A stretch of 64,000 bases of DNA, from IMG/VR virus record IMGVR_UViG_3300031555_004022. One strand, 5' to 3'. The stretch comes from an uncultured virus (IMG/VR IMGVR_UViG_3300031555_004022) (lineage: Duplodnaviria > Heunggongvirae > Uroviricota > Caudoviricetes). The translations under genes and the position numbers were made by a program. Of the stretch, positions 28,703-62,200 are shown piece by piece (the stretch's first letter is position 1; every line of letters starts with the position of its first letter). The notes beneath the pieces were generated by a model. The model was not told the DNA's origin and did no database searches. It saw nothing but the letters and a program-made list of their open reading frames with translations.

Positions 28703-29121
28703 AGCGTCAGTCCTTTCTGGATCGCAGCGGTCAGGGCTGCCTGATCCGCTGCCAGCTGATTCACCGCGGCGGTCAGTTCCGCGCGGGTCATTACCTCACC
28801 GGTGTCTCCGCCTTCCGGCGTCTCCGGCTCGGTGTCTTCCTTGTCCTCGTCTTCAGAGGTTCCCAGGGACAGCAGCAGCTCGTCGTATTCGGCGGTGGTG
28901 ATCACCATGGCGGTCGCCACGGCCCGGTCGATGGTCTCCTTGCCGTACAGCTGGTAGATGTTGGCGCCTTTGGCGTCCAGGACGCCCTGGGCCTGGGTGT
29001 CAATGCAGCGGACGATCTCGCCGTTGCTGGGCTGCTTGTAGACGTAGACCGGCGGGGTCAGAGCTTCGACAGCGACGACGGTGCCGGTGTCGTCCATGAT
29101 TTTGATGTAGATGGTGGTCAT
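28699..29121 (-). CDS. Hypothetical phage protein
   Basis: AGGAGG RBS; ATGA overlap with the RT stop (MTTIYIKIMDD). Confidence 0.65.
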   Translation of the reverse strand: MTTIYIKIMDDTGTVVAVEALTPPVYVYKQPSNGEIVRCIDTQAQGVLDAKGANIYQLYGKETIDRAVATAMVITTAEYDELLLSLGTSEDEDKEDTEPETPEGGDTGEVMTRAELTAAVNQLAADQAALTAAIQKGLTL

Positions 29122-30386
29122 GCGCTGTTTCCTCCTTCTTTTGCGGACGTCTCCGTGTCCCACATTCTCCTGTACTGTTCCATTTCCTCGCGGGCGGCCT
29201 GTTCGCATCTCCAGTCTCGTTCACGCCGCAGCCGATCCTGTTCGATCACGATCTCCGGGAACAGCTGCGTGAACAGATTCCGCATAGACTGGCGTGTTCG
29301 CCAGGTATCGAAGCGGGCCGCGTGGCTGTCCCAGCTCTGGAAAGAGTTGTACACGTCACCCGGCAGCATTTCGCCATTGTTCAGCAGGTGCCGCAGCTTC
29401 TTCAGCTTCCGGCGCTGTCTGGTGACGCTGCGCGGGTAGATTCTCCGGACGATGTGGCCGGTCTGGGTGACGTATGTCCGGACTTTCAAGAAGGTGAAGC
29501 CGCGGGTCAGCTTCACGATCTGTGTCTTCCGGTCGCTCAACGTCAGCCCCACCTCCGCACACTTGGCGCGGATCGCGTCCATGCAGGTCTTCAGGAACTC
29601 CTTGTCTCGGTGGATCAGGTAGAAGTCGTCCATGTATCGACCGTAGTATTTGACGCCCAGGACTTCCTTCACGAAGTGATCCATGGCTCCAGGGATCGCC
29701 GGGGCCAGCACCTGGGAGACTTGGCTGCCCAGGCCCAGGCCAACGCCTTCCCCTGCCGGGGCCTTCGGGTCAAACTGTTTCACCATGTCCAGGATCAGCC
29801 GGACGATCCGCTCGTCCGTGAACTGCTTCCTGATCAGCTGCTCGACCGCCCAATGTGGGATGCTGTCAAAGAAGGATTTCAGGTCACCGATCAGGATGTA
29901 GCCCTCGGTGCCGTGTTCCCGGACGTGCTTCTCTAAATGGCACAGCATACGGCGGACGGCGAAGTCGTAGCCCTTGTTTTTCATGCAGGCGCCGTTGTCA
30001 TACACGAAGCTGCTGCCGATCACCGGCACCAGGGCGTAGTCGCACAGGCAGCGCTGCACCACGCGCTCACCGATCACGGTGCTTTTGATGTGGCGTTTCT
30101 TCCCGCGCTCGAAGATGTCGAACTCGAAGAAGTCCGGGCACCTGTACGTGCCCGCCAGCAGCTTCTGCTGGGTTCTGACCACGTTCAGGGGTGCCTGGGC
30201 GCTGTACCGCTGGACGCTGGCCTTCCAGCCCACATTCCGGCGGCACCGGCGGTATGCTGCATATAGGTGTTCATAGGTGAATACCTGGTCGAAGTTGCGC
30301 GCCGGGGCCAGTTTCGCAGCCCTGGCTGCTTCCCTTCTGGCCCTGCGTCGCAGGTATCGCTGTTGGTGTCGTTCTTTGCTGGTCAT
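29118..30386 (-). CDS. DGR reverse transcriptase
   Basis: GDLKSFFDSI, GLGLGSQVSQ, YGRYMDDF, GFTFL; adjacent TR and avd. Confidence 0.95.
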   Translation of the reverse strand: MTSKERHQQRYLRRRARREAARAAKLAPARNFDQVFTYEHLYAAYRRCRRNVGWKASVQRYSAQAPLNVVRTQQKLLAGTYRCPDFFEFDIFERGKKRHIKSTVIGERVVQRCLCDYALVPVIGSSFVYDNGACMKNKGYDFAVRRMLCHLEKHVREHGTEGYILIGDLKSFFDSIPHWAVEQLIRKQFTDERIVRLILDMVKQFDPKAPAGEGVGLGLGSQVSQVLAPAIPGAMDHFVKEVLGVKYYGRYMDDFYLIHRDKEFLKTCMDAIRAKCAEVGLTLSDRKTQIVKLTRGFTFLKVRTYVTQTGHIVRRIYPRSVTRQRRKLKKLRHLLNNGEMLPGDVYNSFQSWDSHAARFDTWRTRQSMRNLFTQLFPEIVIEQDRLRRERDWRCEQAAREEMEQYRRMWDTETSAKEGGNSA

Positions 30387-30623
30387 GTTAAAACCTCGCT
30401 TCGCCCCGCCCGACTGCCGGACGGTTGCGTATAGTCGTATAGGGTCACCGGGCATGAAACAGCACATAACCGTCAAGCGCTGCCATGCAAGAAGCGTCGT
30501 CCGCCCGGACCCGTCGGGGCGTATATTTACCTTTTCAGGAAGGTCACGGTCTCCTTCTCTCCTTCTCGGTTCTGATTTCGCTTTCGCTACTTTGTCTGCC
30601 AGGGAAGAAGCCGAACGTCGGGG

Positions 30624-30748
30624 AGAAGCCGAACGCGACGCCATTGGAGTTGGTCGCGTTGTTGTTGTTGGCGTTGCCGTTGTTGTTCACATTGCAGAAG
30701 TTCGTGGTGGACGAAGACAACGGGGAGCGCAGCCAGTAGTTGCCCGCG
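30624..30748 (-). repeat. DGR template repeat (TR)
   Basis: 125 bp with 13 AAY codons; differs from both VRs only at TR adenines. Confidence 0.95.
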
Positions 30749-30783
30749 CAAATTTACAGACCGTAACCTCATAGCCTGCCGCA

Positions 30784-31191
30784 TTACTGCGGCAGGTTTT
30801 TGTATCTCTTGCGATCCGCGTCAATGACGCCGTTGATCAGGGTGATCTCCTTGGCGATCATTGCCATCCATGCCGGAAGGATGTCCATGTTGATCCCATC
30901 CACCCGGCAGCAGACCTCGACCTCGCGGATCATGTCAGCATATACGCCCCTGGCGTCAATGAAATGGGCGCGCCGTTTCTGGACGTCGTGCTGGGTCGCC
31001 GGGTATATGTCGTTTCCTCTGGACAGGTGGCCTGCCGCTTCCGCGGCCAGGCCGATCAGTCTGGCGGAAGTGGTGAATCGTTCCGTCTTCGGGAATCTCT
31101 TGCATTTCCGCCGGGTGTAGATTTCGATCTCCATGGCATTATTCAGAAATTCCATGACGGACGTGTTCCGTCTTGCTCTGGGTACTGACGT
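30784..31191 (-). CDS. avd: Avd-like accessory variability determinant (probable ACG start at 31191; first ATG at 31155)
   Basis: Basic helical protein between VR and TR; FPK.ERF motif. Confidence 0.8.
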   Translation of the reverse strand, partial: TSVPRARRNTSVMEFLNNAMEIEIYTRRKCKRFPKTERFTTSARLIGLAAEAAGHLSRGNDIYPATQHDVQKRRAHFIDARGVYADMIREVEVCCRVDGINMDILPAWMAMIAKEITLINGVIDADRKRYKNLPQ

Positions 31192-31211
31192 ATTTCTTCA
31201 CCTCTTTCTTT

Positions 31212-31234
31212 TCTCCGCCCACAGGGGGCGGAGA
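31212..31234 (-). promoter_or_regulatory. GC-rich hairpin downstream of VR1 (DGR target-recognition element)
   Basis: TCTCCGCCC-N5-GGGCGGAGA just past the target stop codon. Confidence 0.7.
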
Positions 31235-31236
31235 TT

Positions 31237-34200
31237 TTATTGGGCGATATTGGATCGTAAACAGAAGCCGAACGCGACGCCAGAGGAGTAGGTCGCGGTG
31301 CCGTGGCCGGCGTTGCCGCCGGTGTTCACATTGCAGAAGTTCGTGGTGGACGAAGACAACGGGGAGCGCAGCCAGTAGTGGCCCGCGGCTCCGGTGCCGT
31401 TGTAGGTCTTCTTGATCCGGCTTGCATTGTCGGTGTAGCAGCTGAATGTCACCTCGTCCGCGCCTTCCGCCACCTCGTTCTTGTAGGGAACGTCTCCGGC
31501 GTTAAAGCCCAGCTCCGCCTGGCTTTCCAGGGTCAGATAGGTGTCCATGGACACGATGTCCGGGGAAGTGTTGCCCGCAGAAGACAGCACCGTGATCTTC
31601 TCGATCATAGTCCGGAAGAACTGCGGCAGGCCCGGCAGCACCACGTCGTTCAGGAAGTCCGGCATGGTCATTGCCGGGAAGCCGCCGACGTTGGTGTTCA
31701 CGTTGTTCATCTGTCTGTTTGCGTTCATCAGGCCGATCATGCCGAAGTACGGCCCGGCGAACTGGCCGATGCGTTCCGCAGACATGAAGTGCTTGTAGGA
31801 TCGCAGCGCCATGATGATCGACGTGTCGGCGAAGTTCGTGGTGCTGATCACCAGCCTGATCTTGTCGCCCTTGGCGAAGAAGTCCCGCTCCCGTCCATAG
31901 TACAGGATGCCGTAGAACTCCGAGGCCGTGTATGCGCTGACGTCCGCCGGGTCGTTAGAATACAGGTAGTCGTATTCAGACGGCACAGAATCCGGCAGCA
32001 CCGGCGTCACAAACAGGGCATGGACATCCAGGTCGGCCTGGACGTTGTTGGTGATGTTGTCCCAGCCCATCCAGACGGCGCCGTCGCTGCGGGTCAGATC
32101 AGCGCCTTCCCAGGCGCAGCTGCCATACGCCGCCACCTGGGAAGTCTGCAACAGACTGCTTTCGGCGTCGTCGTACCAGAAGCGGACGGTGTAGTACCGG
32201 ACAGACGCCGCGAAGACGGCGGTGATCACGGTGTCCATGACGATGTTCGTCAGGGGCTTGTCCCAGCCGGTGAAGGCGAAGGTCTCGCCCACGGTGGGTT
32301 CCCTGGTCGGTTTGCTGATCATGCCAGCGGTGACAGGGTTCAGGGCCGTGCCGCCGTAGCGGACGGTCTGGGTCGCTTCCGTGAAGCTGGTGCCGTCCCA
32401 GTTCTTGAAGGTGACCGTGTAGCTGGTCACGATCTCGCCATAGGACAACGCCAGATCCGGGAAGGCTGCGGTGATCGTGTCGATCTCCGCCTGGGTGATC
32501 ACGGCGCAGTATGCGCTGCCGGTCAGGACGAAGCCATCGATGGTCTCGCCCTGGGCGTCCATGCCGCCGGAAGTTTGCAAACGGGCCAGTCGTGTCAGCA
32601 CGTCGGCGTTGTCGTCGTTCCAGTTCACGCCGATCAGACGGCCACGGGCCAGGCCGGTCGCTGCCTTGCACAGGGCCAGGGTGTCGATCTTCGGGCAGTT
32701 CTCCACCCAGAGGGACAGCAGATTGGAGCCGTCCATGACGAAGGTCTCCAGCTTTACCAGATCGCGGGCCGCGAAGGCGGTGACCGCCGGGACGCGGGCG
32801 ATCCGCAGGGGCGCGCCCTTTGCGAAGGTCAGGCTGGTCATGCCGCTGCCGTTGCCGTAGAACTCTTCCAGGCTGGTCAGGTTGGACAGGTTCATGGCGC
32901 CGGTCAGGTTCGGCAGGCCGCGGACGTCCAGATACTCGATCAGCGTGTTATTGCCCAGGGACAGCTCGGTCATGTTCAGGTTTTCGTAGCCCGCCTCGTC
33001 GCAGCCGATCGGCAGCACCTGGAGCTTTTCCGCCTTCGTCAGGGTGACGAACTTGGTCTTCAGCTTCGACAGGTCGCCCAGCTTGGTCAGGTTGGACGCG
33101 GCGAAGATGTAGGTCTCGGTGTCGGTCAGGCTGTCCACGGGGCACTCCACCGTGTAGGTGACGTTCCGCTTTGCTCTGATCCGGACGGTGCCGTTCGTTC
33201 CGTACATGACCGTGATATACAGGTCAGAGTACGGGGTGATGTCGATATTGCCCGCCGCTGCGTTGCTGACCGTTGCGCGAAGGCTGATACAGTTGGCGCG
33301 GTCAGAGGTGTCGCAGTATTTGGAAGCAAAATAGACGTCCTGGTAGGTCTCGAACTGTTCGCGCCAGTATTCCTTCGTGCCGTGGCAGCGCTTCAGAAAT
33401 GCGGATTCGTTCGCCAGCAGCAGCGGCTCGAAATACTTATTCCACATATCCTCAATTCGCAGGGCTTCCGGGGTGATCGCCTGGTAGTCGTTGAATTTCT
33501 TGATGATGCGGGCAGCGTCCCAGGCGTCCTTGTTCTCCTTGTAGACGCGTTTCAGCTCGTCGTGCATCAGCCCGAAGATATTGACCCAGATGGTGTTGTC
33601 GTTGGCGTTGAAGACGTAGCTGTCGCCCACGATGTCGTCCAGCTCCAGGCCATAGGTGAAGGTGGCGCCGCCGGAGTTGTCGTTGCCTTCGCCGGTGTCG
33701 CCGTCGTACTGGCGCCGGAAGCTCCAGCGGTAGCCGCCGACCTCCGGATAGTAGTCATAGCACAGGAATGTGTTCTTGCTCCGGTTGTCGGTCATGCAAT
33801 GGCGTTCCGTCTTCAGCGCATGGAAAAGCGGCTGGTCGTGGATGAAGTAGTCGTCATATTCCGCCAGCCATTTCGCGTTGCGGTAGGCCGTGGTGTCGTT
33901 GGCATAGACGGTGCCGCCGATGATCACGGACGGCGTCAGGGGTTCACCGGTCGCCAGGTCGGGAGCCGTGGAGACGACCCAGGTCAGCAGCTCCTGGAAT
34001 TTGGCCTTCATGGCGTCGGTGGGGTTCTTCGGGTATGCGAACTCGAAGTTGCTGGTGCCTTCGGCGCCGTCCCAGGTCTCGGTGGTCAGGTCGTCAGACC
34101 GGAAACGGCATTGCAGCGAAATGTTGTTCAGCACCTCGACGCAGCACTGCTCCGGCCACTTCGTGCTGTCCCAGCCGAAGACGGCGAAATTCTTCTTGCT

Positions 34201-37116
34201 GTTGTTCATGTTGCCCGCGAAGTACAGCACGGTCTCACCAGCTGCCACGCTGCGGGCGCCGATGGATACCGTGTCGTCGGATGTGTTCGTGAAGAACACG
34301 GCGCAGGGGTGGCCCTCGATGGTGTCACGGACGCCGTCGGTCTTGCCTGCGAAGGGCACGGGGTTGTAGGTGTTGAACTCGTCACACAACACCACATTGT
34401 TCGCGCTTTCAGAGCTGGCGACGTCTGCCTTCAGGTTGAAGTAGTCGACCGGGATGCTGCTGGGCGTGAAGGCGTAGGACGTGATCGCGTCGCCCTTGCC
34501 GTTCGTGAAGCTGGTGGCCGTGGAGAAGTCGACGTCCAGGTTCAGGGCTGCCAGGATGTACTCCAGGGAGCTTGTGCCCTGGGCCTTGAAGGTGATGCCG
34601 GTGGCGATCAGGTGGTGGGTCTCGCCGCCCGCCACGTAGATGATCTCGATGTCGGCGGTGACCTCGTCGTCCTTGCCGGTGGTCATGCGCTTCGCCTTGA
34701 TATGGACAGAGCGCAGCTCCGTGTTCCTGGCCGTCAATTTGCTGATACTGATCTTGCCCTCGGTGTCAAAGATGTCGTTCCGCAGATAGCGGGCGACCAT
34801 TTCCTCCGGATCGGTGCAGTCGGCGATATAGTTGTCCAGGATTTCGTAGCGGTTCAGGCTGTTGCCGTACATCTTCACACGATAGATCCAGACGTCGGCG
34901 TCTTCGCTGCCGATGGTCAGCAGCTTTGCGGCGGTCTGCGTCCAGCTGTCGGTGCTGCCGTACTGGACGGGCTTCGCAGACGGGACGGCCTTCATGCACA
35001 CGTAGGCCAGGCTGTTCTCGTTGGATGCCTGGATGTTGACGTCCATCTCGATCTTCTTGCCCTCGCAGTACCGGACGTTGATGGTCTCCGCTTCCGATCC
35101 CACGGTGGCCTCCTGGGCCTGGACTTTGATGCCGACGTTGCCGGACATACAGTTGATCAGTTCGGCGTCGTAGTTCCGGACGTTGGTGGTCTTGAAAATC
35201 AGCTTGATCTCCTTGCCGTTGGTCTTGGCATTGTCAGAGAACAGACTGCAATCCGCCGTGACGTAGGTGCCGCGCTTGACCACGAAGGCCGTGACGCCGT
35301 CCTCGTCCAGCTGGAAGCCGCCACCAGTCCAGTCGAAATTATCAGAGAAGGTGAAGGGGTGATTCACTCCGGACTTGTCCGTATATCCGAAGTTAGCGCG
35401 GCCCGCTTCGCTGTTGCTATGGCCGCTGGGGTCGATGTCCAGCACCAGGCCGGACGTGATCGGCGCGATCGCATAGCCCAGGTCGGTCACGGTCAGGGTG
35501 ACGGTGTCGGCCACGGTGCCGCACACGACGGCCAGGGTCTCGGTGCCCACGGCCTTCGCCTTGTAGGCCCAGGTGTTCACCGCGCGACCCACGTCGGTCA
35601 GGATAGAGACGGTGGTGCCGTTTGCGCGCAGCTCGACGGACGTGGTCTCGTTTGCAGGGTCGACCGCCATAAACTTGACGGCGGCGGTGCCGTACTGGGG
35701 CACGGTCAGCTCCGGCTCCAGGACGGCCACGATCTTCGCGGTGGCTCCGGACACAGTCCAGATGCCCACGTGATGCAGGGCGTCGGTGGTCACGGTCTCG
35801 CCTGCGGCGTCCGCTTCCAGCCATGCCCGGATGGTATGGGCGCCATGGGACAGCGGGCCGATGGTGGTGCTGATCGTTCTGCCGGTGCTGGTGACGACTT
35901 CCGTGTATTCCACTTCGCCGTCGACCTCGACCTTCACCGTCTTGTCGCCGGTTCCGGTCGGCGCCAGGCGGATCGTCACGGCCTCGTCCTTGTGGTAGGC
36001 CATTTCGTCCAGGTTCCAGGTCAAGCCGAAGCTGGCGACGCCGATCGTGAAGGGCAAGTTCTTGCTGTTGCCGTAGGCGTCGGAGACGGTCAGGATCACG
36101 GTGCTGTCCTCGCCTTCGGTCAGGTATTTCCGGACGTCGAACTCGTTGTAGCCCTGCTCGATCTTGTAGGTCGCAACGCGGGAGCCGTTGACCGACCAGC
36201 TGGCCGTACCGGGGCCGGTGTTGCTGCCGTCTTCGGTGTCGGTGGACGACCACACGAAGGGCAAGATGCACGTCGGCTCGTCGGACATGATGGAGAAAAT
36301 GCGGCTTTCCAGGCTGCACGTCACCTTCAGCATGGAGCCGTAGCCGCCACCAGAGCCGCCACCAGAGCCAACGAAGAACGGGTCGAAGCCCTCGATGTCG
36401 ACGCCGTCCAGGGTCAGGTGCAGATAGCCTTCTTCGTCGATGTAGCCGGTATCGAAGGCGGTGCCGCCGGTGCCGCTTCCGACTTTGATGCCGTCGCCCA
36501 GTTTGGTCGTACCGCTCCGCAGGTACACCAGACCGGTCGCCGGGTCTTTGTAGATGTTGTCACCCTTTTCTGCCAGGGTGTTCCGCAGCGTCTTGATGAT
36601 CGTGTCGATGTCCACGGTCTGGGTCGCCCGGACTTTGCCGTCGGCGTCGACTTCGGTGACCTTGATGTACTGGCCTACCACGGCACCGGTGGGCATAGGA
36701 ACGAAGCCCACGACGTGCTTGTAGTTTTCGGATGCGGTCAGCATAGCCGCCACATTCTTGTGGACGTTGATCACGATCTGGAAGGTGTTGATCGCCTTAT
36801 GCTCCAGGATCAGGGTCACGCCCATGTGTACCGCGCCGGGTGCCGTCAGCACCTGGGGCGCCAGCTTTACGGTCAGGACATTGCCGGACACAGACCACGC
36901 CGTCTCGCCGTTGGGCATGGTGTCGTACTCGCCGCCGGTTCCGTCGGCCTTGACATAGTTCACGACCGCGGTGGCGCCGGTTGGGATGGGCCAGGGCGTG
37001 CCGTCGGTGACCAGGCTGATCTCCACGTTCCGGCTGTACTTGTCGTCCTGGATCGCCTCGATCTTCGGCTTGTCGTACCAGTTCAGATCCATTTCGATCT
37101 TGCTTGTCGCAATCAT
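31237..37116 (-). CDS. Large tail/receptor-binding protein, DGR target 1
   Basis: BppU-like N-terminus (QDDKYSRNVEI...YVKADG), LRR-like region, C-terminal YWLRSP...GVAFGFC CLec-like domain containing VR1. Confidence 0.9.
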   Translation of the reverse strand: MIATSKIEMDLNWYDKPKIEAIQDDKYSRNVEISLVTDGTPWPIPTGATAVVNYVKADGTGGEYDTMPNGETAWSVSGNVLTVKLAPQVLTAPGAVHMGVTLILEHKAINTFQIVINVHKNVAAMLTASENYKHVVGFVPMPTGAVVGQYIKVTEVDADGKVRATQTVDIDTIIKTLRNTLAEKGDNIYKDPATGLVYLRSGTTKLGDGIKVGSGTGGTAFDTGYIDEEGYLHLTLDGVDIEGFDPFFVGSGGGSGGGYGSMLKVTCSLESRIFSIMSDEPTCILPFVWSSTDTEDGSNTGPGTASWSVNGSRVATYKIEQGYNEFDVRKYLTEGEDSTVILTVSDAYGNSKNLPFTIGVASFGLTWNLDEMAYHKDEAVTIRLAPTGTGDKTVKVEVDGEVEYTEVVTSTGRTISTTIGPLSHGAHTIRAWLEADAAGETVTTDALHHVGIWTVSGATAKIVAVLEPELTVPQYGTAAVKFMAVDPANETTSVELRANGTTVSILTDVGRAVNTWAYKAKAVGTETLAVVCGTVADTVTLTVTDLGYAIAPITSGLVLDIDPSGHSNSEAGRANFGYTDKSGVNHPFTFSDNFDWTGGGFQLDEDGVTAFVVKRGTYVTADCSLFSDNAKTNGKEIKLIFKTTNVRNYDAELINCMSGNVGIKVQAQEATVGSEAETINVRYCEGKKIEMDVNIQASNENSLAYVCMKAVPSAKPVQYGSTDSWTQTAAKLLTIGSEDADVWIYRVKMYGNSLNRYEILDNYIADCTDPEEMVARYLRNDIFDTEGKISISKLTARNTELRSVHIKAKRMTTGKDDEVTADIEIIYVAGGETHHLIATGITFKAQGTSSLEYILAALNLDVDFSTATSFTNGKGDAITSYAFTPSSIPVDYFNLKADVASSESANNVVLCDEFNTYNPVPFAGKTDGVRDTIEGHPCAVFFTNTSDDTVSIGARSVAAGETVLYFAGNMNNSKKNFAVFGWDSTKWPEQCCVEVLNNISLQCRFRSDDLTTETWDGAEGTSNFEFAYPKNPTDAMKAKFQELLTWVVSTAPDLATGEPLTPSVIIGGTVYANDTTAYRNAKWLAEYDDYFIHDQPLFHALKTERHCMTDNRSKNTFLCYDYYPEVGGYRWSFRRQYDGDTGEGNDNSGGATFTYGLELDDIVGDSYVFNANDNTIWVNIFGLMHDELKRVYKENKDAWDAARIIKKFNDYQAITPEALRIEDMWNKYFEPLLLANESAFLKRCHGTKEYWREQFETYQDVYFASKYCDTSDRANCISLRATVSNAAAGNIDITPYSDLYITVMYGTNGTVRIRAKRNVTYTVECPVDSLTDTETYIFAASNLTKLGDLSKLKTKFVTLTKAEKLQVLPIGCDEAGYENLNMTELSLGNNTLIEYLDVRGLPNLTGAMNLSNLTSLEEFYGNGSGMTSLTFAKGAPLRIARVPAVTAFAARDLVKLETFVMDGSNLLSLWVENCPKIDTLALCKAATGLARGRLIGVNWNDDNADVLTRLARLQTSGGMDAQGETIDGFVLTGSAYCAVITQAEIDTITAAFPDLALSYGEIVTSYTVTFKNWDGTSFTEATQTVRYGGTALNPVTAGMISKPTREPTVGETFAFTGWDKPLTNIVMDTVITAVFAASVRYYTVRFWYDDAESSLLQTSQVAAYGSCAWEGADLTRSDGAVWMGWDNITNNVQADLDVHALFVTPVLPDSVPSEYDYLYSNDPADVSAYTASEFYGILYYGRERDFFAKGDKIRLVISTTNFADTSIIMALRSYKHFMSAERIGQFAGPYFGMIGLMNANRQMNNVNTNVGGFPAMTMPDFLNDVVLPGLPQFFRTMIEKITVLSSAGNTSPDIVSMDTYLTLESQAELGFNAGDVPYKNEVAEGADEVTFSCYTDNASRIKKTYNGTGAAGHYWLRSPLSSSTTNFCNVNTGGNAGHGTATYSSGVAFGFCLRSNIAQ
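31263..31387 (-). repeat. DGR variable repeat VR1
   Basis: 125 bp aligned without gaps to TR; 13 mismatches, all at TR adenines. Confidence 0.95.
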
Positions 37117-52405: not shown

Positions 52406-52528
52406 TTTCTTCTCCTTCCTGGGGCTTCCTGTTTTTCCGGATTTACGGCGGCCCTTCTCTGGGCCTCTTGGCGGCCTTCTGGCGGGTCTTTTTTGACCGC
52501 GACCGCCAGCCCTCGGAAACGAAAAAAG

Positions 52529-52645
52529 ACAAGCACCGGGTGATTGATTGCTCTTTCACTCGGTGCTTGTCTTGCACATTTCCTGTCTGATATTCTATCG
52601 CCTGGGGCCGAAAAACGCCACCCCAGGTTTTCCCCACGTTTTTAC
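52529..52645 (-). promoter_or_regulatory. Late promoter/leader element, copy upstream of the packaging genes
   Basis: Repeat of 28135-28249; TAGAAT -10. Confidence 0.75.
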
Positions 52646-53141: not shown

Positions 53142-53873
53142 TTACAGGCCGGGCGGCGGATCACGCCACCATTTGCTTCGCGTGTCCTCGTCGGTTTTGT
53201 CACCCTGGGCCGCCTTTTCCTTCTCCAGCGCGATCCGGCGCTTGGCTTTGTCGTAGGTGCTTTCCTTCACCTCGAAACAGATAAACCGGCGGTTGTTCCG
53301 GATCGCTGCGACGCCGGTGGTGCAGCTGCCGCCGAACAGGTCGACGACCAGGTCGCCCTCCTGGGTGGAATCCAGCAGGCAGCGCTCAATGATCGCCACC
53401 GGCTTCTGGGCCGGGTGGATTTTGTCACCGTCGGTACCGGCAGCGCCCACAGAAAAGCCGTTTTCCCGCCACACGTTGGATCCACCACGCCGCAGGCCGG
53501 TGTTCTTCGTGCCGTACAGGATGAATTCGTGGGTGTAGCTGTAAAAGCTGCCAGGGCCTGCTCCCTTGTCCCAGACGATCAGGTTCTTGACCGGCAAATA
53601 CTCCGCGAAGATCGGGTAGTAGAACGCGTAGCCGCGCCAGTCCATGAAAATGTAAAATTCCCCTTCCGGCTTCAGCACGCGGTTGATCTCCCGCGCCAGG
53701 GCCTTCCAGAACGGCTTGGTGATCTCCAGATCAGCGAAGTCTCCGCGGGTTCCGTTCTGGGTCAGCCCCTGGAAGTAGGGGGGGTCGGTGATGATCGCCT
53801 GGACGCTGCCGGTTTTGATCTGCCGCAGGCCGTCCAGGCAGTCCATGTTGTAGATTTCATTCTCTTTCAGCAT
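53142..53873 (-). CDS. N4/N6 DNA methyltransferase (beta class)
   Basis: TDPPY, HPAQKP, DLFGGSCTT. Confidence 0.9.
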   Translation of the reverse strand: MLKENEIYNMDCLDGLRQIKTGSVQAIITDPPYFQGLTQNGTRGDFADLEITKPFWKALAREINRVLKPEGEFYIFMDWRGYAFYYPIFAEYLPVKNLIVWDKGAGPGSFYSYTHEFILYGTKNTGLRRGGSNVWRENGFSVGAAGTDGDKIHPAQKPVAIIERCLLDSTQEGDLVVDLFGGSCTTGVAAIRNNRRFICFEVKESTYDKAKRRIALEKEKAAQGDKTDEDTRSKWWRDPPPGL

Positions 53874-54099
53874 TTCGCACTCCTTCCAGCGTCGCGGTGT
53901 AGGTCGTTGTGACGACCTGGATCGCCGTGCGCTGCATTTCTCCGCAGCTTATGCGGTCTTCGACCGGTATGCCCGCGGCTTCCTCCGCGGTGTCGGTTTT
54001 GTTGCAGTATGGCCGGGCCGGGCAGCCGGGGCACAAGCCCGCGGCGCCCAGAGCGTCAAACAGCCAGTCCTGTTCCTCGCGGGTGGCAATGATTACCAC
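53857..54099 (-). CDS. Hypothetical Cys-containing protein
   Basis: Tightly packed ORF; CPGCP...C. Confidence 0.5.
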   Translation of the reverse strand: MVIIATREEQDWLFDALGAAGLCPGCPARPYCNKTDTAEEAAGIPVEDRISCGEMQRTAIQVVTTTYTATLEGVRNAERE

Positions 54100-54100
54100 G

Positions 54101-54605
54101 TCACGCGCTCCTTTCCATCAGGTGCAGGGCCATCCGGCGCCAGCTTTCGGCCTGCTCCTTCGCTTCGGCCAGCTGTTCCTCCAGCTGGTCGGTCTCTGCT
54201 GCGCGGCGGACGTCCCGCCACGGCTTGGGGTCGTAGGTGTTCCGGGGTGCTTCTTCCTCCAGGCCCAGGGCGCGCCGGATCGCGTCGTCGATCTGGGCCA
54301 TTTCCTCGTCGGTCACGTGGCCGCAGCACTTATCCAGGCGGCGGGTGTCGACGGTCTTGATCTGATCGCACAGGGCGATCGAAGGCTTCGGGGCGCTGCC
54401 GATCTCGATGTGCAGCCCACCAGGGTCAGGGCGGTCTCGTTTGGTGGTCAGATACACCACCATGCAGGTGTTACCCCCCCCCCGCGGAAAAATCGCTGAC
54501 AATGACGCCAGGGCGTCCGGGCTGCTGTTCGTGGCCCCTGCTGATCTCCATGTCCCGCTCCACGTAGTAAATATCGCCGCGGGTGATTCTCCGGTTTCTG
54601 TACAT
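54101..54605 (-). pseudogene. PemK/MazF-like gene frameshifted at a G10 tract
   Basis: RGDIYYV...GHEQ..GRPGVIVS in one frame and VVYLTT...ALCDQIKTVD..RL in another; C10 at 54474-54483. Confidence 0.8.
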
Positions 54606-54610
54606 TGTGG

Positions 54611-54805
54611 TCACCATTTCCTTCCGTAGCCGTAGTAGTTCCGGCGCTGCGCGTCGGTCATGTTTCTGACGTTCTTCTTCTCGATCCATTCCAGGATGCT
54701 ATCCGCCACCAGCATCAGGATCAAGCCAGGCGTCGCAAGCATTACGCCCAGGGCGCCCAGCAGATAGCCCAGGCTGGCGGTGATCCGGGTGATCAGTTTC
54801 TTCAT
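54611..54805 (-). CDS. Small hydrophobic protein
   Basis: GGAG RBS, ATGA overlap, TM-like segment. Confidence 0.5.
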   Translation of the reverse strand: MKKLITRITASLGYLLGALGVMLATPGLILMLVADSILEWIEKKNVRNMTDAQRRNYYGYGRKW

Positions 54806-54978
54806 GTGTTCTCCAGTTCCTCGAACTCCGCGTCCAGCGGGTCGATTTCTTCCAGGATGTACACGGCGCCATGCAGCAGTCCGGCAGCGATCACAGCGAT
54901 CAGCATGACGGGCAGTTCGATCACCAGGATCAGAACGTCGCGCACTTTGTCCCAGGTCTTTTTCAGCAGTTCCTTCAT
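54802..54978 (-). CDS. Small hydrophobic protein
   Basis: MKELLKKTW...; ATGA overlap with the parB stop. Confidence 0.5.
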   Translation of the reverse strand: MKELLKKTWDKVRDVLILVIELPVMLIAVIAAGLLHGAVYILEEIDPLDAEFEELENT

Positions 54979-56279
54979 TCGTCCATTCCCTCCAGGCTCC
55001 AGGCCGCCACCAGGGCGTCCAGCATTTCCAGACAGGCGCGGGCCTGCGCTTCTTCCAGTCCGGCGTTCACGACGCACCAGCGGATCATGCCGATCCGGTC
55101 GGTCTCGGTTTCCACGGACTTCTCGATCTCTGCGGCGATCTCCGCCTTGTAGGTGGTCACCGGCCCCGCCACGGGTTCGGCTGGCTTGACGTTCTTGTTC
55201 CGGTACATATCGCAGGCGGTGGTCTTGTCCGTCCGATCCATGCAGGTGTCCCAGTTTGCACAGCTGAAGCACAGGGACGTCAGCGTCTTCGGCTCCGCCT
55301 GGGTTACCGGTGCAGCCTTCGCTGCTGCCTTTGCTTCTTCGGCCAGCACCTGGCGATCGACCACTTCGCACCGGAAGTCGCAGGTCGTCCGCTTCAGGCA
55401 GCCCTTGCAGCAGCCAGCGCACCCGACCAGCTCACCCTTCCGCATGAAGTTCGCCTTGATCACGCCGTAGTGTTCACAGGGGCCGTTGGCGACCTGGCAG
55501 TCCCTGGACGCCCAGGGGTTGCCGTCGTCCTTCGGCTTCGGTGTTGCCTGCCTGGCTTCGCTGGCGTCCTTGTGGGTGATCTCCGTGCCGGTGTCCTGGG
55601 CGCGCTCGAAGGCGGCACGCTGCGCGTCTTCATCCATGCCCGCCAGGGCGTAGGCTGCGGAGAATTTCAGGCCGCCGGTGTCCAGCAGTTGCTTCAGCTC
55701 TGGGATCAGGTGGCCGGTGATCCGCTCGATCTGGGCGATCTTCGTGGTGGACTTGTTCAGGATCGCGGCGATCACGTCGCGGAGACGTCCGCTTGTCAGG
55801 TCGTACCCGGCCAGCTTCTGGCCCTTTGCCCGCATGGCTTCCAGGGTGGCCTTCAGGGTGGTGTACTCCTGGAGCTGGTCGCCGATGGACTTGACGCGCT
55901 GGCTGTTTGCGGCGATCAGGTCAATGGTTTCTTCCTCCGGCGTCTTCTTCGCCCGGACGTTGCAGGTCGCCACGCTGAACTCGGTGTGTCCCCGGCTGAC
56001 CAGCAGCTTCAGGGCCTCCCATCTGCGCTCACCGCTGACGATCCGGTACTGGCCCGCCGGGGTGGGGTCGTAGATCACGACCAGATTGTCCAGCAGGCCG
56101 GACATCAGAATATGGCCCGCCAGTTCCTCGATCTCGACGATCTCGTAGAAGTTGCCCTCGTTCCGGTACAGCTGATCGATCGGCAGGTCTTTCGTCCGGA
56201 ACTTTCCGGAAGGGCCGGAAGGCTGCGCGCCTTTGCTGGCCGCGTTCAGGGTGTCCAGAATGTTGTGTCCTGTTGCCAT
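54975..56279 (-). CDS. parB: ParB-family protein with Cys-rich C-terminal region
   Basis: GLLDNL.V, YRIVSGERRW.A; downstream of parA. Confidence 0.85.
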   Translation of the reverse strand: MATGHNILDTLNAASKGAQPSGPSGKFRTKDLPIDQLYRNEGNFYEIVEIEELAGHILMSGLLDNLVVIYDPTPAGQYRIVSGERRWEALKLLVSRGHTEFSVATCNVRAKKTPEEETIDLIAANSQRVKSIGDQLQEYTTLKATLEAMRAKGQKLAGYDLTSGRLRDVIAAILNKSTTKIAQIERITGHLIPELKQLLDTGGLKFSAAYALAGMDEDAQRAAFERAQDTGTEITHKDASEARQATPKPKDDGNPWASRDCQVANGPCEHYGVIKANFMRKGELVGCAGCCKGCLKRTTCDFRCEVVDRQVLAEEAKAAAKAAPVTQAEPKTLTSLCFSCANWDTCMDRTDKTTACDMYRNKNVKPAEPVAGPVTTYKAEIAAEIEKSVETETDRIGMIRWCVVNAGLEEAQARACLEMLDALVAAWSLEGMDE

Positions 56280-57070
56280 TACTTCAGCACCTCCATGATC
56301 TCACGCGCCAGGGCGGCATATTCCCGCGATACCTTGCAGCGGGGGCTGTACGACGTGACCGGCTCCTGGTTGATGCTGGCCCGCTCCACGATCACCGACC
56401 GGCTGACCGTGGCGTCAAACGCCTGGCAGCGGTCGAAGGATTTCAGCCACTTCTCGAACTGATCGGAGGCGTCGTTGCGGCCCTTCATGGTGAAGAACGA
56501 CCGCAGCACCAGGGCGTCGTTCAGGCCGTGCAGCTGCTCGATCGTGTCGGCCATGTGGCCCAGGGCGTCAGCCTCGAAGCCGCCCAATTTCACCGGCACG
56601 ACCACCAGATCAGCCGCCACCAGGGCGTTCAGGACGGTCATGTCAAGCAGCAGGCCGCAGTCGACGATCACGTAGTCATACAGTTCCTGCACCTCCGGTG
56701 TGCCCAGGGCGGTCTGTAGCCGTCGCACCTGGTCGTTCTCGGTGTCGGTGGCGATCTCCGTGTTCGCGTCCATCAGGTAGCCGTTCGCCGGGATCACGTC
56801 GACCCGGTAGAAGCCGGTCTTCTTGTCTCCGAACACTCTGGACTGCTTCACAACGTCCGCCACGGTGACCTCGCCATGAACAGCAGACAGCAGGGCGGCC
56901 AGGCCCTTGTCCTCCGGGTCTGCCACGCCGTACAGGGTGGACAGGTTGCCCTGTTGGTCGGCGTCGATCATCAGGACACGGTGATGCGCGCCCAGGATGC
57001 AGCCCAGGGCCGCGGCGGTCGTGGTCTTACCGGCGCCGCCTTTTTCAATCATTACAGCGATTATTTTCAT
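56279..57070 (-). CDS. parA: ParA/Soj ATPase
   Basis: EKGGAGKTT, IDADQQGN, YDYVIVDC. Confidence 0.9.
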   Translation of the reverse strand: MKIIAVMIEKGGAGKTTTAAALGCILGAHHRVLMIDADQQGNLSTLYGVADPEDKGLAALLSAVHGEVTVADVVKQSRVFGDKKTGFYRVDVIPANGYLMDANTEIATDTENDQVRRLQTALGTPEVQELYDYVIVDCGLLLDMTVLNALVAADLVVVPVKLGGFEADALGHMADTIEQLHGLNDALVLRSFFTMKGRNDASDQFEKWLKSFDRCQAFDATVSRSVIVERASINQEPVTSYSPRCKVSREYAALAREIMEVLK

Positions 57071-57117: not shown

Positions 57118-57558
57118 TCACTTTCTCCAGCCATCCAGGGACGGGAAGCCCCAGCGCACCTTCAGCAGGTCGGCGTCTTCCGCCATTTTCTCGCACGGCT
57201 TCAGGTTCATGTACTCGGTCAGCAGGTGGATCGCTGCGTTCGCGCTCCATACGACCGCCACGAAATACCCGGCGGCCTGGAGCTGCCGCAGCCAGTCCTT
57301 CTGGTCTTCGCTGGGCAGGTTCTTCCCGTACTTCATTTCGATCCGCAGGCCATGATATACGCCCGCCGGATAGTCCAGGATCAGATCGGGGACGCCAGGC
57401 TTCAGTCCCAGCGACTTCAGAATACCGGCGGTTGCCTTCGTTCTCTTGCCTTCGTTGGGGACGTGGTACAGGTTCTTCAGGCCGGGGTATTTGCCCTGGG
57501 CGTAGCTGGCCCACTCGATCACGGCTTGCTGTTCACTCGTTTCGCTTGCTCCTTGCAC
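57118..57558 (-). CDS. VRR-NUC domain nuclease
   Basis: HVPNEG.R, G.KPGVPDL, IEMK, Q..W...L...GY. Confidence 0.85.
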   Translation of the reverse strand: MQGASETSEQQAVIEWASYAQGKYPGLKNLYHVPNEGKRTKATAGILKSLGLKPGVPDLILDYPAGVYHGLRIEMKYGKNLPSEDQKDWLRQLQAAGYFVAVVWSANAAIHLLTEYMNLKPCEKMAEDADLLKVRWGFPSLDGWRK

Positions 57559-58616
57559 TTCTTTCTTCCTCCTTTCCTGATCAGGTGAAGGCAATCCAGG
57601 GGCACCTTGTAGGCCCGGCCCTTGCTTCCGGTCTTCCGGATCACAGCCTGGTCTCCTTCGGCGTACTCGATCAGCTCATAGACCGCCTTCTCGTCATAGC
57701 CCAGATCCTCCGCGTCCCGGATGTGTACCAGGTCGCCGGGGGCACAGGCTCGTCGCAACTTGGCGTATATGTAGGGCAGGCCGTTGAACTCGTTGATCCG
57801 GCGCTCGATGCTCTTTAGCCAGCAGCCAGGGGTCACGGCTCTGATCATTTCGGCGGCGTCTTCGTAGTTTTCGGCCATCTTTTTCGCCTTGTTGTGGCTG
57901 AATGTCTGGTGATTTTTCCGTTCTTCGGGCTTTTTCAGGTTCTTGGAAGCGCACCACCGTTTCTTGCCCTTCGGGTCTTTGGTGATGTAGTGGGCCAGGC
58001 CAGACAGGCCGTTCTCGTCATAGTCCAGGCGGCGGGTCTGATTGCGGCGTCCCAGCTTCCACGTGCTTTCCACTTCATCCATCGACAGCTGGCCGTCCAT
58101 GACGATGTGGTGGTGGCACCTGATCTTGTGGTTGTCGTCCTCTGACCATTCCGTGACATAGACGTACTTGGCAGGGGGCAGGCCCAGCTTCTTCCGGCGG
58201 TAGTTGATGCGCTTGATGTACTTCTGCATATTTTCCAAGGCTTCCTCCATGGAGCCGGGCAGGTTCCGGTCGGTATAGACCAGGGTGGCCCAGATGTCCT
58301 GGCTGGTGAAGTTGGTGTTGATCAGGCGCTCACAGTTCTTTCTGGCGTTCTTGTCCTTCAGGTTCCGCTGGGCCTGGGCATTGTAACCAGGACGGCGGCC
58401 TGCTGCCGGGATGTCTTCACGCTTTACGAACTCCGGATAGATTTCCAGCTCGACCTGATCACCGGCGTCGATCCGCTTCGTGGCGTATATAGCGCGCTTA
58501 CCTTTGCGGATCAACTCCCGGACGAACAGGTCATCGTCCTGGTCTATGGTTCGATCGAAGGCTGCCTCGTAGTCGTAGGGAATGAACGGGGCGGGCTTCT
58601 TCCTTGGCTGCTTCAT
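57519..58616 (-). CDS. HUH-type (rolling-circle Rep-like) protein
   Basis: WATLVY (motif I), CHHHIVM (motif II), LAHYITK (motif III). Confidence 0.7.
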   Translation of the reverse strand: MKQPRKKPAPFIPYDYEAAFDRTIDQDDDLFVRELIRKGKRAIYATKRIDAGDQVELEIYPEFVKREDIPAAGRRPGYNAQAQRNLKDKNARKNCERLINTNFTSQDIWATLVYTDRNLPGSMEEALENMQKYIKRINYRRKKLGLPPAKYVYVTEWSEDDNHKIRCHHHIVMDGQLSMDEVESTWKLGRRNQTRRLDYDENGLSGLAHYITKDPKGKKRWCASKNLKKPEERKNHQTFSHNKAKKMAENYEDAAEMIRAVTPGCWLKSIERRINEFNGLPYIYAKLRRACAPGDLVHIRDAEDLGYDEKAVYELIEYAEGDQAVIRKTGSKGRAYKVPLDCLHLIRKGGRKKCKEQAKRVNSKP

Positions 58617-58746: not shown

Positions 58747-58751
58747 AGAAG

Positions 58752-58829
58752 GGCAATATTTAGGTATTGCAGCCTTGTCGGCGTGCCGCCTCCACTCTCA
58801 AATGTCGGGCGGCGCGCCGCTCTTTTTTT
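58752..58829 (+). ncRNA. Putative antisense small RNA of about 78 nt
   Basis: Between the consensus promoter and a GGGCGG-CGCG-CCGCTC-T7 terminator; no RBS-led ORF. Confidence 0.7.
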
Positions 58830-58986: not shown

Positions 58987-58990
58987 GTTC

Positions 58991-59209: not shown

Positions 59210-59252
59210 AGTTTCACCTCCTGGGGTTGGTTTCCATTTATTTCCACTTTCA

Positions 59253-59998: not shown

Positions 59999-60000
59999 TG

Positions 60001-60216
60001 TTACCTCCTTGTAAAGTGTTCCGGCGTGTTTTTATACACGCAGTTCATATTCTTGTCCATAGCGCCGACGACGTGCATGATCTCACCATTGTCCATGCGT
60101 CGCAGGGCGATCTCATAAATGTACGGGCAAACAATATCCACAGCGCCGACCGTTCTGTCGTTATAAACGACCGGCACCCTGTCCTTGAATGCCTGCTGCG
60201 CTTCTTTCCAGGTCAT
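60001..60216 (-). CDS. Hypothetical protein
   Basis: GGAGG RBS, ATGA overlap. Confidence 0.55.
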   Translation of the reverse strand: MTWKEAQQAFKDRVPVVYNDRTVGAVDIVCPYIYEIALRRMDNGEIMHVVGAMDKNMNCVYKNTPEHFTRR

Positions 60217-60425
60217 GCTTTCTGGGCCTCCTTCTTCTCCCGGCGCTTCCGCCGGTTGTATTCAGGACACGCGAACGGCTCCAGGTCGTGGCACTTTTCG
60301 CAGCACGCTTTGCAGGTAGCCTGCCCGAAGCGCTCATAGCCGCAGGGCCTCGCCCGCTCGGTCTGATCCGGAAAGACTTCGCCGCAGATGTAGCACCGGA
60401 AGCCCGCCACGGGTTTCTTTTTCAT
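60213..60425 (-). CDS. Small Cys-rich (Zn-finger-like) protein
   Basis: CYICG...C...CKACCEKC. Confidence 0.55.
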   Translation of the reverse strand: MKKKPVAGFRCYICGEVFPDQTERARPCGYERFGQATCKACCEKCHDLEPFACPEYNRRKRREKKEAQKA

Positions 60426-60727
60426 GCGGTGCCCTTCTTTCTCCTGGGCTTTCCGCCATCCGGACGGCGGGCCATCTTTGCGGCCTCCATGATCGCGCGC
60501 TGGCGCTGCTCCTGGGTCTGATCTTCAGCGAAGCACGGCAGGCCGCCCATGTTGGCAGCCACGACGCGGGCGTAGGTCAGACCGGTGACCAGGACGTCCT
60601 TCAGCAGCATGATCTGCGCGACCTGCTCCGCGTTGGTGGGGTCTTCGGGTCTCATTGCCTTCGCCCAGCCGACCGCAGCGTCCAGGTCTTCGGGTTCGAC
60701 CAGTTTGTAGCCTTTCTTCTGTTTCAT
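60422..60727 (-). CDS. Hypothetical protein
   Basis: Tightly packed operon ORF. Confidence 0.5.
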   Translation of the reverse strand: MKQKKGYKLVEPEDLDAAVGWAKAMRPEDPTNAEQVAQIMLLKDVLVTGLTYARVVAANMGGLPCFAEDQTQEQRQRAIMEAAKMARRPDGGKPRRKKGTA

Positions 60728-60732
60728 TTTCG

Positions 60733-61500
60733 TCACGCCACGAAATTGATCAGAACGATCGCCGCCAGGGTAGCCACGAAGGCCAGGGTGATGTTCTTCT
60801 GGCGGGCGCCGTCCTTTTCGCCGACCGTGCCCAGGAACAGCACGAAGGCGATCAGGCCCAGCAGAATGTTCAGAAAAATGATCATCGTGTTTTCTCCTTT
60901 CCTGATTTGTCCCGTTTCGGCCCTCCGTAGGCCATCATCGGTGACGCGGGTCAGCGTCAGACGGGATGGGCCAGGGCCGCCGTGATCGACGCCCTGGCCG
61001 TATAATTCGTAAAGCGTAGGCACCGGCAGCAGCCAGGTCACCAGCACCTTCACGGCGCCGTCGTGCCGGTCTTCTTCCTCCGGCTCGTCGGCGTCTGCGT
61101 ATTCTTCCATCATTTCCCGGATTTCTTCCCAGGCTTCAGCCAGGCCGGGCGCGTACTGTTCGTTGATCGTCTGGATCAGGGCGTTCAGCATTTCGGCAGC
61201 TGCGGCTGCTGCCTGGGCTACCAATTCACCGACGCGGCGAAGGGCGTCGTCCAGTTCCGCCACGGTGATCCCGGCGGCGTGGGCCAGCTGCGCGATCTGG
61301 AACTCCAACTCTTTACCGTTCCGGCGACCGGCGCCTATGATCACGGCCCGGCTGCGATCCCGTTCCTGGAGTATCTGTTCCTTGTCCATTGACGCCAGGC
61401 GGCGAAGGGTTTCGACGCCTTCGTCCATGGGGACGATCAGCTCGCCCGGTTCCATTTCCAGCTCCTGGGCGTCCGTTTCAATTATTCCGCCGTGGATCAT
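60733..61500 (-). CDS. Hypothetical protein; contains an internal RBS and ATG for a 50-aa two-TM protein (60733-60885)
   Basis: GGAGG RBS at the start; AAAGGAG RBS before the internal MIIFLNILLG. Confidence 0.55.
   Translation of the reverse strand: MIHGGIIETDAQELEMEPGELIVPMDEGVETLRRLASMDKEQILQERDRSRAVIIGAGRRNGKELEFQIAQLAHAAGITVAELDDALRRVGELVAQAAAAAAEMLNALIQTINEQYAPGLAEAWEEIREMMEEYADADEPEEEDRHDGAVKVLVTWLLPVPTLYELYGQGVDHGGPGPSRLTLTRVTDDGLRRAETGQIRKGENTMIIFLNILLGLIAFVLFLGTVGEKDGARQKNITLAFVATLAAIVLINFVA
60910..60966 (-). ncRNA. Type III hammerhead-like ribozyme A
   Basis: UCCCGUC / UGACGC-loop-GCGUCA / CCGAUGA U / GGCC-loop-GGCC / GAA ACGGGA. Confidence 0.8.
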
Positions 61501-61519
61501 GCGTACCTCCGAAGGTTGT

Positions 61520-61540
61520 GCCGCCCCTGGGCGGGGCGGC
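61520..61540 (-). promoter_or_regulatory. GC-rich hairpin downstream of VR2
   Basis: GCCGCCCC-N5-GGGGCGGC just past the target stop codon. Confidence 0.7.
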
Positions 61541-61546
61541 GGATTG

Positions 61547-62200
61547 TTAGATCATGGAGCCGATCAAGAAGCCGAACGCGACGCCAATGGAGTAGGTCGC
61601 GCCGTGGTTGTTGGCGACGCCGTAGCCGTTCACACCGCAGAAGTACGTGGTGGACGAAGACAACGGGGAGCGGGTGGCGTACCACCACGTCTCGCCGTTG
61701 AAGTTCTTGACGCGGTCGGCTTCGGTCTTGAAAATGGGCAGCTGTTCCTCGTCGGGGCCGTCGCACTCGGTGCCCCACTCGCCCCTGCCGAACATTTCCG
61801 TCGCAGAGGGCCGCCACAGCTTGTCCTCGGTGACGACTTCCTCGCCGCCGATCAGCTGAACGATCCGGCGGGGCGTGATCTCCGCCACCAGGTCGTCAGG
61901 CAGCAGGGCCAGGTCTTCGGTGTTCATGGTCTTCCGGTCGTCGGATTCTGCCCAGGACAGCAGCTTGCCGGGCAGGCGGTTGTACATAGGGCGCCGGGCG
62001 TGCAGGTCTTTCGCGATAAACAGGGCGCCGGTGTCGGTGACCTTCGCGGCCACGACCGTCTGGGCGATCCCGTCCTTGCCGATGTAGGTGATTTCGTCGC
62101 GTTCCTCCAGGAACTGGGTCAGGCGGCCCTGCTGGGCCTCGACGGTGATGTCGTGCCAGTTCACCGGCACCTGCTTCCACTTTCTCATAACTGCGGACAT
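61547..62200 (-). CDS. Stand-alone CLec/DUF6273-like protein, DGR target 2
   Basis: AGGAGG RBS before MSAVMRKW; DKLW.PS..E.FG, WWY.RSP...GVAFGF; contains VR2. Confidence 0.85.
   Translation of the reverse strand: MSAVMRKWKQVPVNWHDITVEAQQGRLTQFLEERDEITYIGKDGIAQTVVAAKVTDTGALFIAKDLHARRPMYNRLPGKLLSWAESDDRKTMNTEDLALLPDDLVAEITPRRIVQLIGGEEVVTEDKLWRPSATEMFGRGEWGTECDGPDEEQLPIFKTEADRVKNFNGETWWYATRSPLSSSTTYFCGVNGYGVANNHGATYSIGVAFGFLIGSMI
61567..61672 (-). repeat. DGR variable repeat VR2 (remote)
   Basis: 106 bp aligned without gaps to TR 30624-30729; 13 mismatches, all at TR adenines. Confidence 0.95.

Follow-up and report, generated by a model that had tools for sequence, protein, structure and literature searches.

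One diversity-generating retroelement with two targets, a tail protein and a remote stand-alone DUF6273 protein, in an uncultured Caudoviricetes virus

In diversity-generating retroelements (DGRs), a reverse transcriptase (RT) working with Avd copies the RNA of a template repeat (TR) and errs at adenines, a process known as mutagenic retrohoming. The stretch analysed here (64,000 nt, referred to as the window; IMG/VR record IMGVR_UViG_3300031555_004022, an uncultured virus of the Caudoviricetes) carries such an element together with two genes possessing a variable repeat (VR), one encoding a large tail protein (target 1, with VR1) and the other a small protein located 31 kb from the cassette (target 2, with VR2). 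Related systems have been described. In phage BPP-1, the homology at the 3′ end of the VR plus a hairpin is enough to target a foreign gene (PMC3240598). Quimbyvirus has a distal, apparently non-structural C-type lectin (CLec) target beside methyltransferases, for which a role in phage-host conflict was proposed (Benler 2021, PMC8008677), and four prophage species with such a layout were reported (Dahlman 2025, PMC12629997). The small target of Toutatisvirus is a core gene lying 17,480 nt from the TR (10.1101/2024.10.15.618418), both VRs of CP11 vary among cognate genomes (PMC11792537), and VR1 and VR2 of phage Shimadzu were both mutated in virion reads (Cornuault 2019, 10.1101/575076). A remote second target, which a sequence-only reading of this window had called unusual, is accordingly a layout already in print for Quimbyvirus, Shimadzu, Toutatis, Lelie/CP11 and the Dahlman 2025 species; this layout and the counter-defence idea are both published, and the present locus adds another example. 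Remote targets were outside the scope of the survey by Roux 2021 (PMC8144416) and are therefore under-counted. What job the remote small target performs is a question raised in at least five papers. A literature search, with most subscription journals outside its reach, found no experimental functional test of such a protein, and the accessible text of 10.64898/2026.05.08.723808 and PMC13432834 contained no virion data on it.

A single DGR almost certainly serves both targets. Self-BLAST of the window aligned the full TR with VR1 over 125 bp and TR positions 30624-30729 with VR2 over 106 bp, each without gaps and with 13 mismatches. On the coding strand, all 13 mismatches in VR1 fell on TR adenines (30 A in 125; chance about 8e-10), as did all 13 in VR2 (27 A in 106; chance about 1e-9), and the two sets of substitutions differed from each other. 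The coordinates, the mismatch counts and the differing substitutions given by the sequence-only reading were thereby reproduced. In self-comparison, VR1 and VR2 appeared as direct repeats (78% over 130 bp).

The cassette, entirely on the minus strand, was arranged in the order target 1, hairpin, Avd-like gene, TR, RT-2 RNA and RT (Table 1). The RT gene, an open frame beside the TR, matched Pfam RVT_1 at 2e-15 in addition to having the two motifs noticed earlier. The presence of Avd, also claimed before, rested on the position and size of the gene and by 25-31% identity of its product to the same-place genes of other DGR loci; in the Pfam and NCBIfam models searched, the protein had no match. 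Its first codon (31189-31191, minus strand) was ACG behind a GAGGTG site, as opposed to ATG in 16 of 16 scorable homologues, the frame comprising 135 codons when counted from the ACG and 123 aa from the next ATG. The ACG may be a non-standard start or a lost start codon, and DGR activity could drop.

The hairpin with a 5-nt loop reported behind both targets was also found in DNA folds. The flanks of VR1 and VR2 (57-58 nt) folded at -14.0 and -13.3 kcal/mol, respectively, whereas the TR flank folded weakly (-4.7 kcal/mol) and had no GC hairpin. Neither loop was a 4-nt GRNA loop of the BPP-1 type. In relatives, the loops were 4-6 nt, and a hairpin folded 3′ of the small target in all 18 loci examined, although part of these may be terminators. 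Because of the BPP-1 precedent (PMC3240598), the hairpin 3′ of VR1 is likely to be, by analogy, a target-recognition element. The possibility that the two hairpins of the window are terminators was rejected, as both lacked a U-tract and the VR2 hairpin was uncalled in a terminator scan of L001, which is, with G001, one of the two matching virus records from which the prophage ends were taken. The statement that both targets end in GVAFGF was incorrect, as a further 8 residues (target 1) or 6 residues (target 2) come after this motif.

Table 1. Coordinates of the DGR cassette, its two targets and genes of the early region in the window
Feature	Coordinates	Strand	Remarks
DGR reverse transcriptase	29118..30386	minus	about 422 aa from ATG beyond RT-2 RNA; RVT_1, GSQVSQ, YMDD
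RT-2 structured RNA in TR-RT spacer	30382..30604	minus	Rfam RF03077, 119.3 bits (cut-off 40), full length
TR	30624-30748	minus	window self-BLAST; AAC codons abundant
Avd-like accessory gene	30784..31191	minus	between target 1 and TR; homologues in matching place
GC hairpin 3′ of VR1	31212..31234	minus	9 pairs, 5-nt loop; DNA fold
Target 1, 1959-aa tail/baseplate protein	31237..37116	minus	BppU_N N-terminal, DUF6273 (CLec-type) C-terminal
VR1	31263..31387	minus	125 bp, 13/13 mismatches at TR adenines
ParA, ParB, DNA methylase	53142-57070	same strand	Pfam AAA_31, ParB_N, N6_N4_Mtase
Replication initiator gene	57519..58616	minus	PHROG 3584 6e-75; Pfam REP_ORF2-G2P
GC hairpin 3′ of VR2	61520..61540	minus	8 pairs, 5-nt loop; DNA fold
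Target 2, 217-aa stand-alone DUF6273 protein	61547..62200	minus	GGAGG site before ATG
VR2	61567..61672	minus	106 bp, 13/13 mismatches at TR adenines
PAPS-reductase-like (SspD-like) gene, two frames	62406..63211	minus	directly upstream of target 2

Target 1 closes the siphophage tail module, following the tape-measure, Dit-like and Prophage_tail genes. Its Pfam matches were BppU_N at 6.6e-5 and DUF6273 at 9.6e-5, the latter marginally below the cut-off, and its C-terminal domain was matched by the A1 profile at 4e-23. In target 2, DUF6273 was the sole Pfam domain (1.9e-8; 34.8 bits versus a cut-off of 23.5), with VR2 occupying codons 177-212 in its C-terminal part. The protein has a pI of 5.0, and its close homologues were mostly 215-218 aa. 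No hydrophobic segment was observed (maximum mean of 1.27 over 19 residues on the Kyte-Doolittle scale, N terminus below 0; no signal-peptide predictor was run), and searches against PADLOC, NCBIfam and named PHROGs gave no match, no dedicated anti-defence library having been searched. The earlier description of target 2 as a stand-alone protein encoded among early genes agreed with its single domain, its position and its lack of a hydrophobic segment.

The structural model of target 2 (pLDDT 76.8, pTM 0.79) was confident apart from the VR loop, residues 181-206, at below 50. Its best structural match was residues 32-284 of 9qa6 (Z 10.8, rmsd 3.4, 163 aligned), the N-terminal domain of a Thomasclavelia IgA peptidase, a region termed DUF6273 by the authors of that structure (PMC12402451); the Treponema variable protein 2y3c gave a Z of only 4.7. 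Foldseek with the model gave no match at E <= 0.001, a profile search of PDB sequences gave none at E <= 1, and matches in the ESM Atlas were DUF6273 clusters only. A CLec-type fold is suggested for target 2 by analogy, the label being taken from the literature in which DUF6273 is called CLec (Baykov 2023, PMC10743442; 10.1101/2024.10.15.618418). The tentaclin arrangement, an N-terminal CLec followed by immunoglobulin domains, was found in neither protein, target 2 being single-domain and the DUF6273 of target 1 being C-terminal.

VR2 was variable in populations, as revealed by contigs of four runs (X1, X5, X6 and X8) aligned to 60700-63200. In run X1, possibly the sample from which the window was derived, a bubble was present at 61557-61681, with alleles having 0 and 17 differences at depths of 6.2 and 3.2, respectively, and flanks having 0 differences; alternatively, the two alleles could be those of two co-resident strains. 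A single contig of run X5 spanned 60700-62955 with 17 differences, and all 6 that were individually listed lay at TR adenines and matched the minor X1 allele. Run X6 had the window allele, and run X8, from a separate study, had a third allele together with the VR2 flank. All 16 listed variable positions within VR2 were TR adenines, a count that is not independent because some rows were TR- and VR1-derived contigs that also aligned. Since VR2 alleles differed within and between samples as well as among relatives, the invariance that the sequence-only reading had named as counting against it was not what was found.

The rest of target 2 behaved differently from the TR-adenine codons. Homologues numbered 44, of which 36 were aligned; among the 5 with at least 85% identity, TR-adenine codons differed in 50 of 75 comparisons, versus 8 of 105 for other VR codons and 57 of 875 for the scaffold. 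The X8 strain had 5 silent and 5 coding changes among the 10 listed. The scaffold is, to judge from these alignments, under purifying selection, the dN/dS values calculated from non-independent pairs being 0.17, 0.51, 0.31 and 0.10 for the four clusters compared. For comparison of the two VRs, a related phage group was used in which the TR was identical in 7 of 7 records, VR2 alleles of loci without their own TR being scored against this shared TR. In this group, 238 of 493 adenine sites were changed in 17 VR2 alleles versus 2 of 1088 other sites, and 85 of 203 adenine sites in 7 VR1 alleles versus 1 of 448 other sites; Tyr, Asp and Ser headed the residue changes in both.

The region around target 2 could be followed beyond the window, as L001 was the same as the window over 12,451 bp and added 2.9 kb. 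In the added part, there were an opposite-strand helix-turn-helix gene with weak repressor-type matches and, at 3.25 kb upstream of target 2, a TTGACA-17-TATAAT promoter (12/12); the interval from this promoter to the gene contained a single weak terminator-like match. Around this perfect promoter, three AAGTTCCG-initiated repeats were recognized by eye (L001:1410-1500), which are likely to be operators of the divergent repressor. Downstream of target 2, the same strand encodes small genes, the replication initiator, ParA, ParB and the methylase, and the nearest head gene is 10 kb away. Such a layout marks a repressor-controlled early lytic operon in the lambdoid pattern, and because of this arrangement the target 2 operon is regarded as one. 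Of the early-region words, a fraction of 0.06-0.28 was present in the RNA runs, which were uninformative on expression.

Two further features of this region were noted. The PAPS-reductase-like gene matched PHROG 424 on both pieces and PADLOC SspD (1.6e-12) on the second piece; its frame is split near a stretch of 10 C residues (about 62946-62955) that is 3 bases shorter in X8, and similar genes also occurred near the small target in L020, L039, L041 and L048. A hammerhead-like three-stem motif was present in two copies on the minus strand (60905-60972 and 63713-63780), flanking the target 2 block, each copy upstream of a small early gene. Both copies have GUC in the closing stem and a core of CCGAUGA with one extra U, then GAAA, and their stem I sequences differ yet pair in both. 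The hammerhead consensus has U where this core has C. No Rfam match was obtained even at E 10, and other loci were negative save the identical L001.

Relatives of target 2 were collected from viral contigs and genomes. A single-sequence scan of viral contigs returned the identical copy only, and profile scans returned 61 viral and 13 genome loci, nearly all encoding stand-alone proteins of about 205-285 aa. An RT was present in 19 of the 33 longer virus records and in 9 of 9 of those at least 90% complete. The 20 loci of these 19 records were compared with the resident TR. In 14 of them, representing 6 lineages at 70% identity and having the small target about 11-32 kb from the RT, the VR matched it and adenines accounted for at least 89% of the mismatches. 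As for the other six loci, L035 had a match with 15 of 22 mismatches at adenines, L023, L054 and L058 had none, and L026 (wrong end used) and L055 (incomplete) were unscorable. Dulem virus 34, a complete myovirus, had the matching layout as well, its small target being flanked by an adenine methylase and a Rep gene.

For neighbouring genes, 75 loci were clustered, with six omitted (L013, L026, L030, L055, L061 and L074). Excluding four clusters, one with the copy from the window and three with multi-domain proteins, the neighbour scan covered 182 same-strand neighbours (same-strand open reading frames only) of 22 lineage representatives. Replication, recombination or methylase genes were present within about 2.6 kb of the small target in 17 of the 22 lineages, and no capsid, portal, baseplate or fibre match was found within this distance on the same strand in any of the 22. 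Terminase small subunit or neck-type matches lay 2.1-2.5 kb downstream in 3 lineages, and small transglycosylase-type genes were nearby in 6.

In a tree built after removal of the VR (left uncut in row L069; several tail rows were on long branches), 29 stand-alone rows fell on one side of a 99/98 branch and 15 multi-domain rows on the other. In 11 of 11 phages, moreover, the phage's own tail CLec scored below all 22-27 distant stand-alone relatives. As judged by sequence relationship, the small targets form a group distinct from the tail CLec domains that occur in their own phages, and they are kept in replication modules. That target 2 derives from a tail tip duplicated recently was rejected on the basis of the tree and the own-tail scores, which rule out such an event in each phage. 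In the record L016 (L016:1-13887), the early region was joined via VR2 straight to the Avd-TR-RT cassette, with 98% to both flanks of a relative; either the late genes lying between the VRs have been deleted in it, or the assembly is chimeric.

The best overall explanation, which has about an even chance of being right, is that target 2 is an early free-standing CLec binder diversified by the shared DGR and having a host factor as partner. The virus would be temperate, a siphophage infecting a gut host of the Clostridia type, and would have a single DGR for two targets, in which the complementary DNA of the TR would replace any site sharing the TR 3′ homology and the GC hairpin; since these two elements would define the site, the distance of a target need not matter. 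Target 2 would be expressed from the repressor-controlled early promoter upon induction or infection, remain cytoplasmic and outside the virion, and act as a free CLec binder consisting of one domain, with a variable loop redrawn every round. The likeliest partner would be a host macromolecule met early, for example a defence or DNA-metabolism protein, which would be blocked by binding. The individual parts of this explanation are held with different confidence. Target 2 is probably an early, cytoplasmic, non-virion protein because of the early promoter, the lack of a hydrophobic segment, the relatives in replication and methylase modules and the separate lineage. Selection may have favoured VR2 surfaces that bind a host factor in an allele-specific way, most likely in a host-defence conflict; the chance of this is put slightly below even. 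It is rather unlikely that the stand-alone DUF6273 proteins are an old lineage dedicated to hypervariable binding inside the cell ("phage nanobodies"), which passes between unrelated Clostridial phages, is recoupled to the TR present in each, is expressed from the early lytic promoter and disables variable host defence proteins through allele-specific binding, as an adaptive counter-immunity of phages. If binding in host defence is true, DGRs would be a means of adaptive phage counter-defence beyond tropism switching. The locus is a clean test case, offering both VRs, VR2 alleles that differ within one sample and, in a matching record, the early promoter.

Several points weigh against a host-factor binder, and they are given together with the alternatives they concern. 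An unlikely alternative is that the scaffold has a real early function and that VR2 is hypermutated largely as a by-product of TR homology plus hairpin, with little or no selection acting on it. In the related group, the residue spectra at variable codons were indistinguishable between VR1 and VR2 (p 0.39), with Tyr at 35 of 120 variable codons in VR1 and 86 of 348 in VR2 (p 0.34), and a lean to Tyr, Ser and Asp on AAC is produced by the BPP-1 RT alone (PMC12875486). The VR2 spectrum, which does not differ from that of VR1 and resembles intrinsic RT bias, thus gives no support for selection on VR2, nor does it speak against it. VR2 alleles of Shimadzu were less selected than those of VR1 in mice (10.1101/575076), and with this weak selection added to the likeness to VR1 and to the RT bias, an anti-defence role remains a guess. 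The gene also persists where a matching TR is absent: the orphan small target recorded for L023:6295-6424 and L080/L108 (G014) has a VR that is about 63% to the TR of the resident DGR, and it is taken to be no longer DGR-driven because that TR differs and has its own VR. Likewise, the small target was present in 98.8% of Toutatisvirus phages and a DGR in 68.2% (10.1101/2024.10.15.618418). Against the by-product alternative, the VR follows the resident TR across TR families while the scaffold keeps its own lineage, and the upkeep of a hairpin in 18 of 18 loci, even if some are terminators, would be puzzling were the variation useless. Three further points tell against the host-factor explanation itself: no constant neighbour or partner gene was seen across the 22 lineages, a methylase was nearby in only 10 of the 22 (a raw count without a baseline), and the stand-alone grouping in the tree is favoured by the way its rows were sampled, through their resemblance to target 2.

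Quite unlikely is the alternative that target 2 belongs to the virion as a minor component, or is an adhesin or decoy set free by lysis, and binds cell-surface glycans or proteins, as is assumed for other DUF6273 domains. Tail proteins and tentaclins do carry DUF6273, as does the IgA peptidase of 9qa6, which is extracellular, and the Toutatis pair was read as receptor-binding proteins by Egorov and Atkinson (10.1101/2024.10.15.618418), which is again a point against an intracellular binder. However, target 2 is an early-operon gene without an anchor domain or hydrophobic segment, and its relatives avoid the structural modules in both sipho- and myo-type phages. Least probable is that VR2 is an allele reservoir recombining into VR1, or target 2 a superinfection-exclusion tail-tip mimic masking the receptor from inside; the direct repeats and the L016 junction would suit it, whereas the alleles of VR1 and VR2 differ here and in relatives where both were read, the scaffold is under apparent purifying selection and of separate lineage, and L016 is possibly a chimera.

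Other features of the window concern its left part and its repeats. A 74-bp direct repeat (90.5%; 127-199 and 25088-25161) brackets a 25-kb element carrying integrase, ParB, DnaC/IstB-like ATPase, Spo0A-like and WYL genes and a PP2C-kinase-leucine-rich repeat-helicase cluster. It is apparently an integrated element of its own, next to the left end of the prophage, because G001 departs from the window sequence at 25152. Within it, a 355-aa coiled-coil open reading frame contains a 159-bp internal repeat (91%; 3846-4004 and 4140-4298). A 124-bp repeat (84.7%) was located at 28128-28249, upstream of the lysis genes, and at 52522-52645, upstream of the HNH/terminase genes; the two copies are probably twin late promoters.

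Compared with the described systems, the cassette resembled that of BPP-1 in the target-avd-TR-RT order, the adenine-specific changes and a GC stem behind the VR (7-10 bp in BPP-1), but BPP-1 has a single target and a 4-nt GRNA loop, in contrast to the two targets and 5-nt non-GRNA loops here (Guo 2011, PMC3240598). Roseburia phage Shimadzu likewise has a tail VR1 and a VR2 in a gene of unassigned function (10.1101/575076), although it is a myovirus related to Lagaffe, and the Lagaffe_CP targets were reported to be Mtd-like, not DUF6273 (PMC11792537). Quimbyvirus and the Dahlman species share, by layout only, a far second VR whose gene is apparently non-structural and lies close to DNA methyltransferases (PMC8008677, PMC12629997); Quimbyvirus differs in that it infects Bacteroides, has a frameshift in its RT and carries the second target on the strand opposite the structural module (PMC8008677). 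As compared by description, FP_Toutatis has a single TR between Avd and RT and two DUF6273 targets with C-terminal VRs, as found here, whereas its local target, encoded downstream of the RT, is of the Hoc-like/tentaclin kind (10.1101/2024.10.15.618418), instead of the 1959-aa tail protein upstream and the remote target 31 kb away in the present case. The Faecalibacterium phages Lelie and CP11 also have a large and a small DUF6273 target with one DGR (Gulyaeva 2024, PMC11792537). With its lone DUF6273 domain, its distant position and a TR in common with the large target, target 2 falls among the small remote second targets of the Toutatis and Lelie/CP11 type, and to these the comparison adds that the small targets appear to have a lineage of their own, apart from the tail CLec domains and lying mostly in replication modules.

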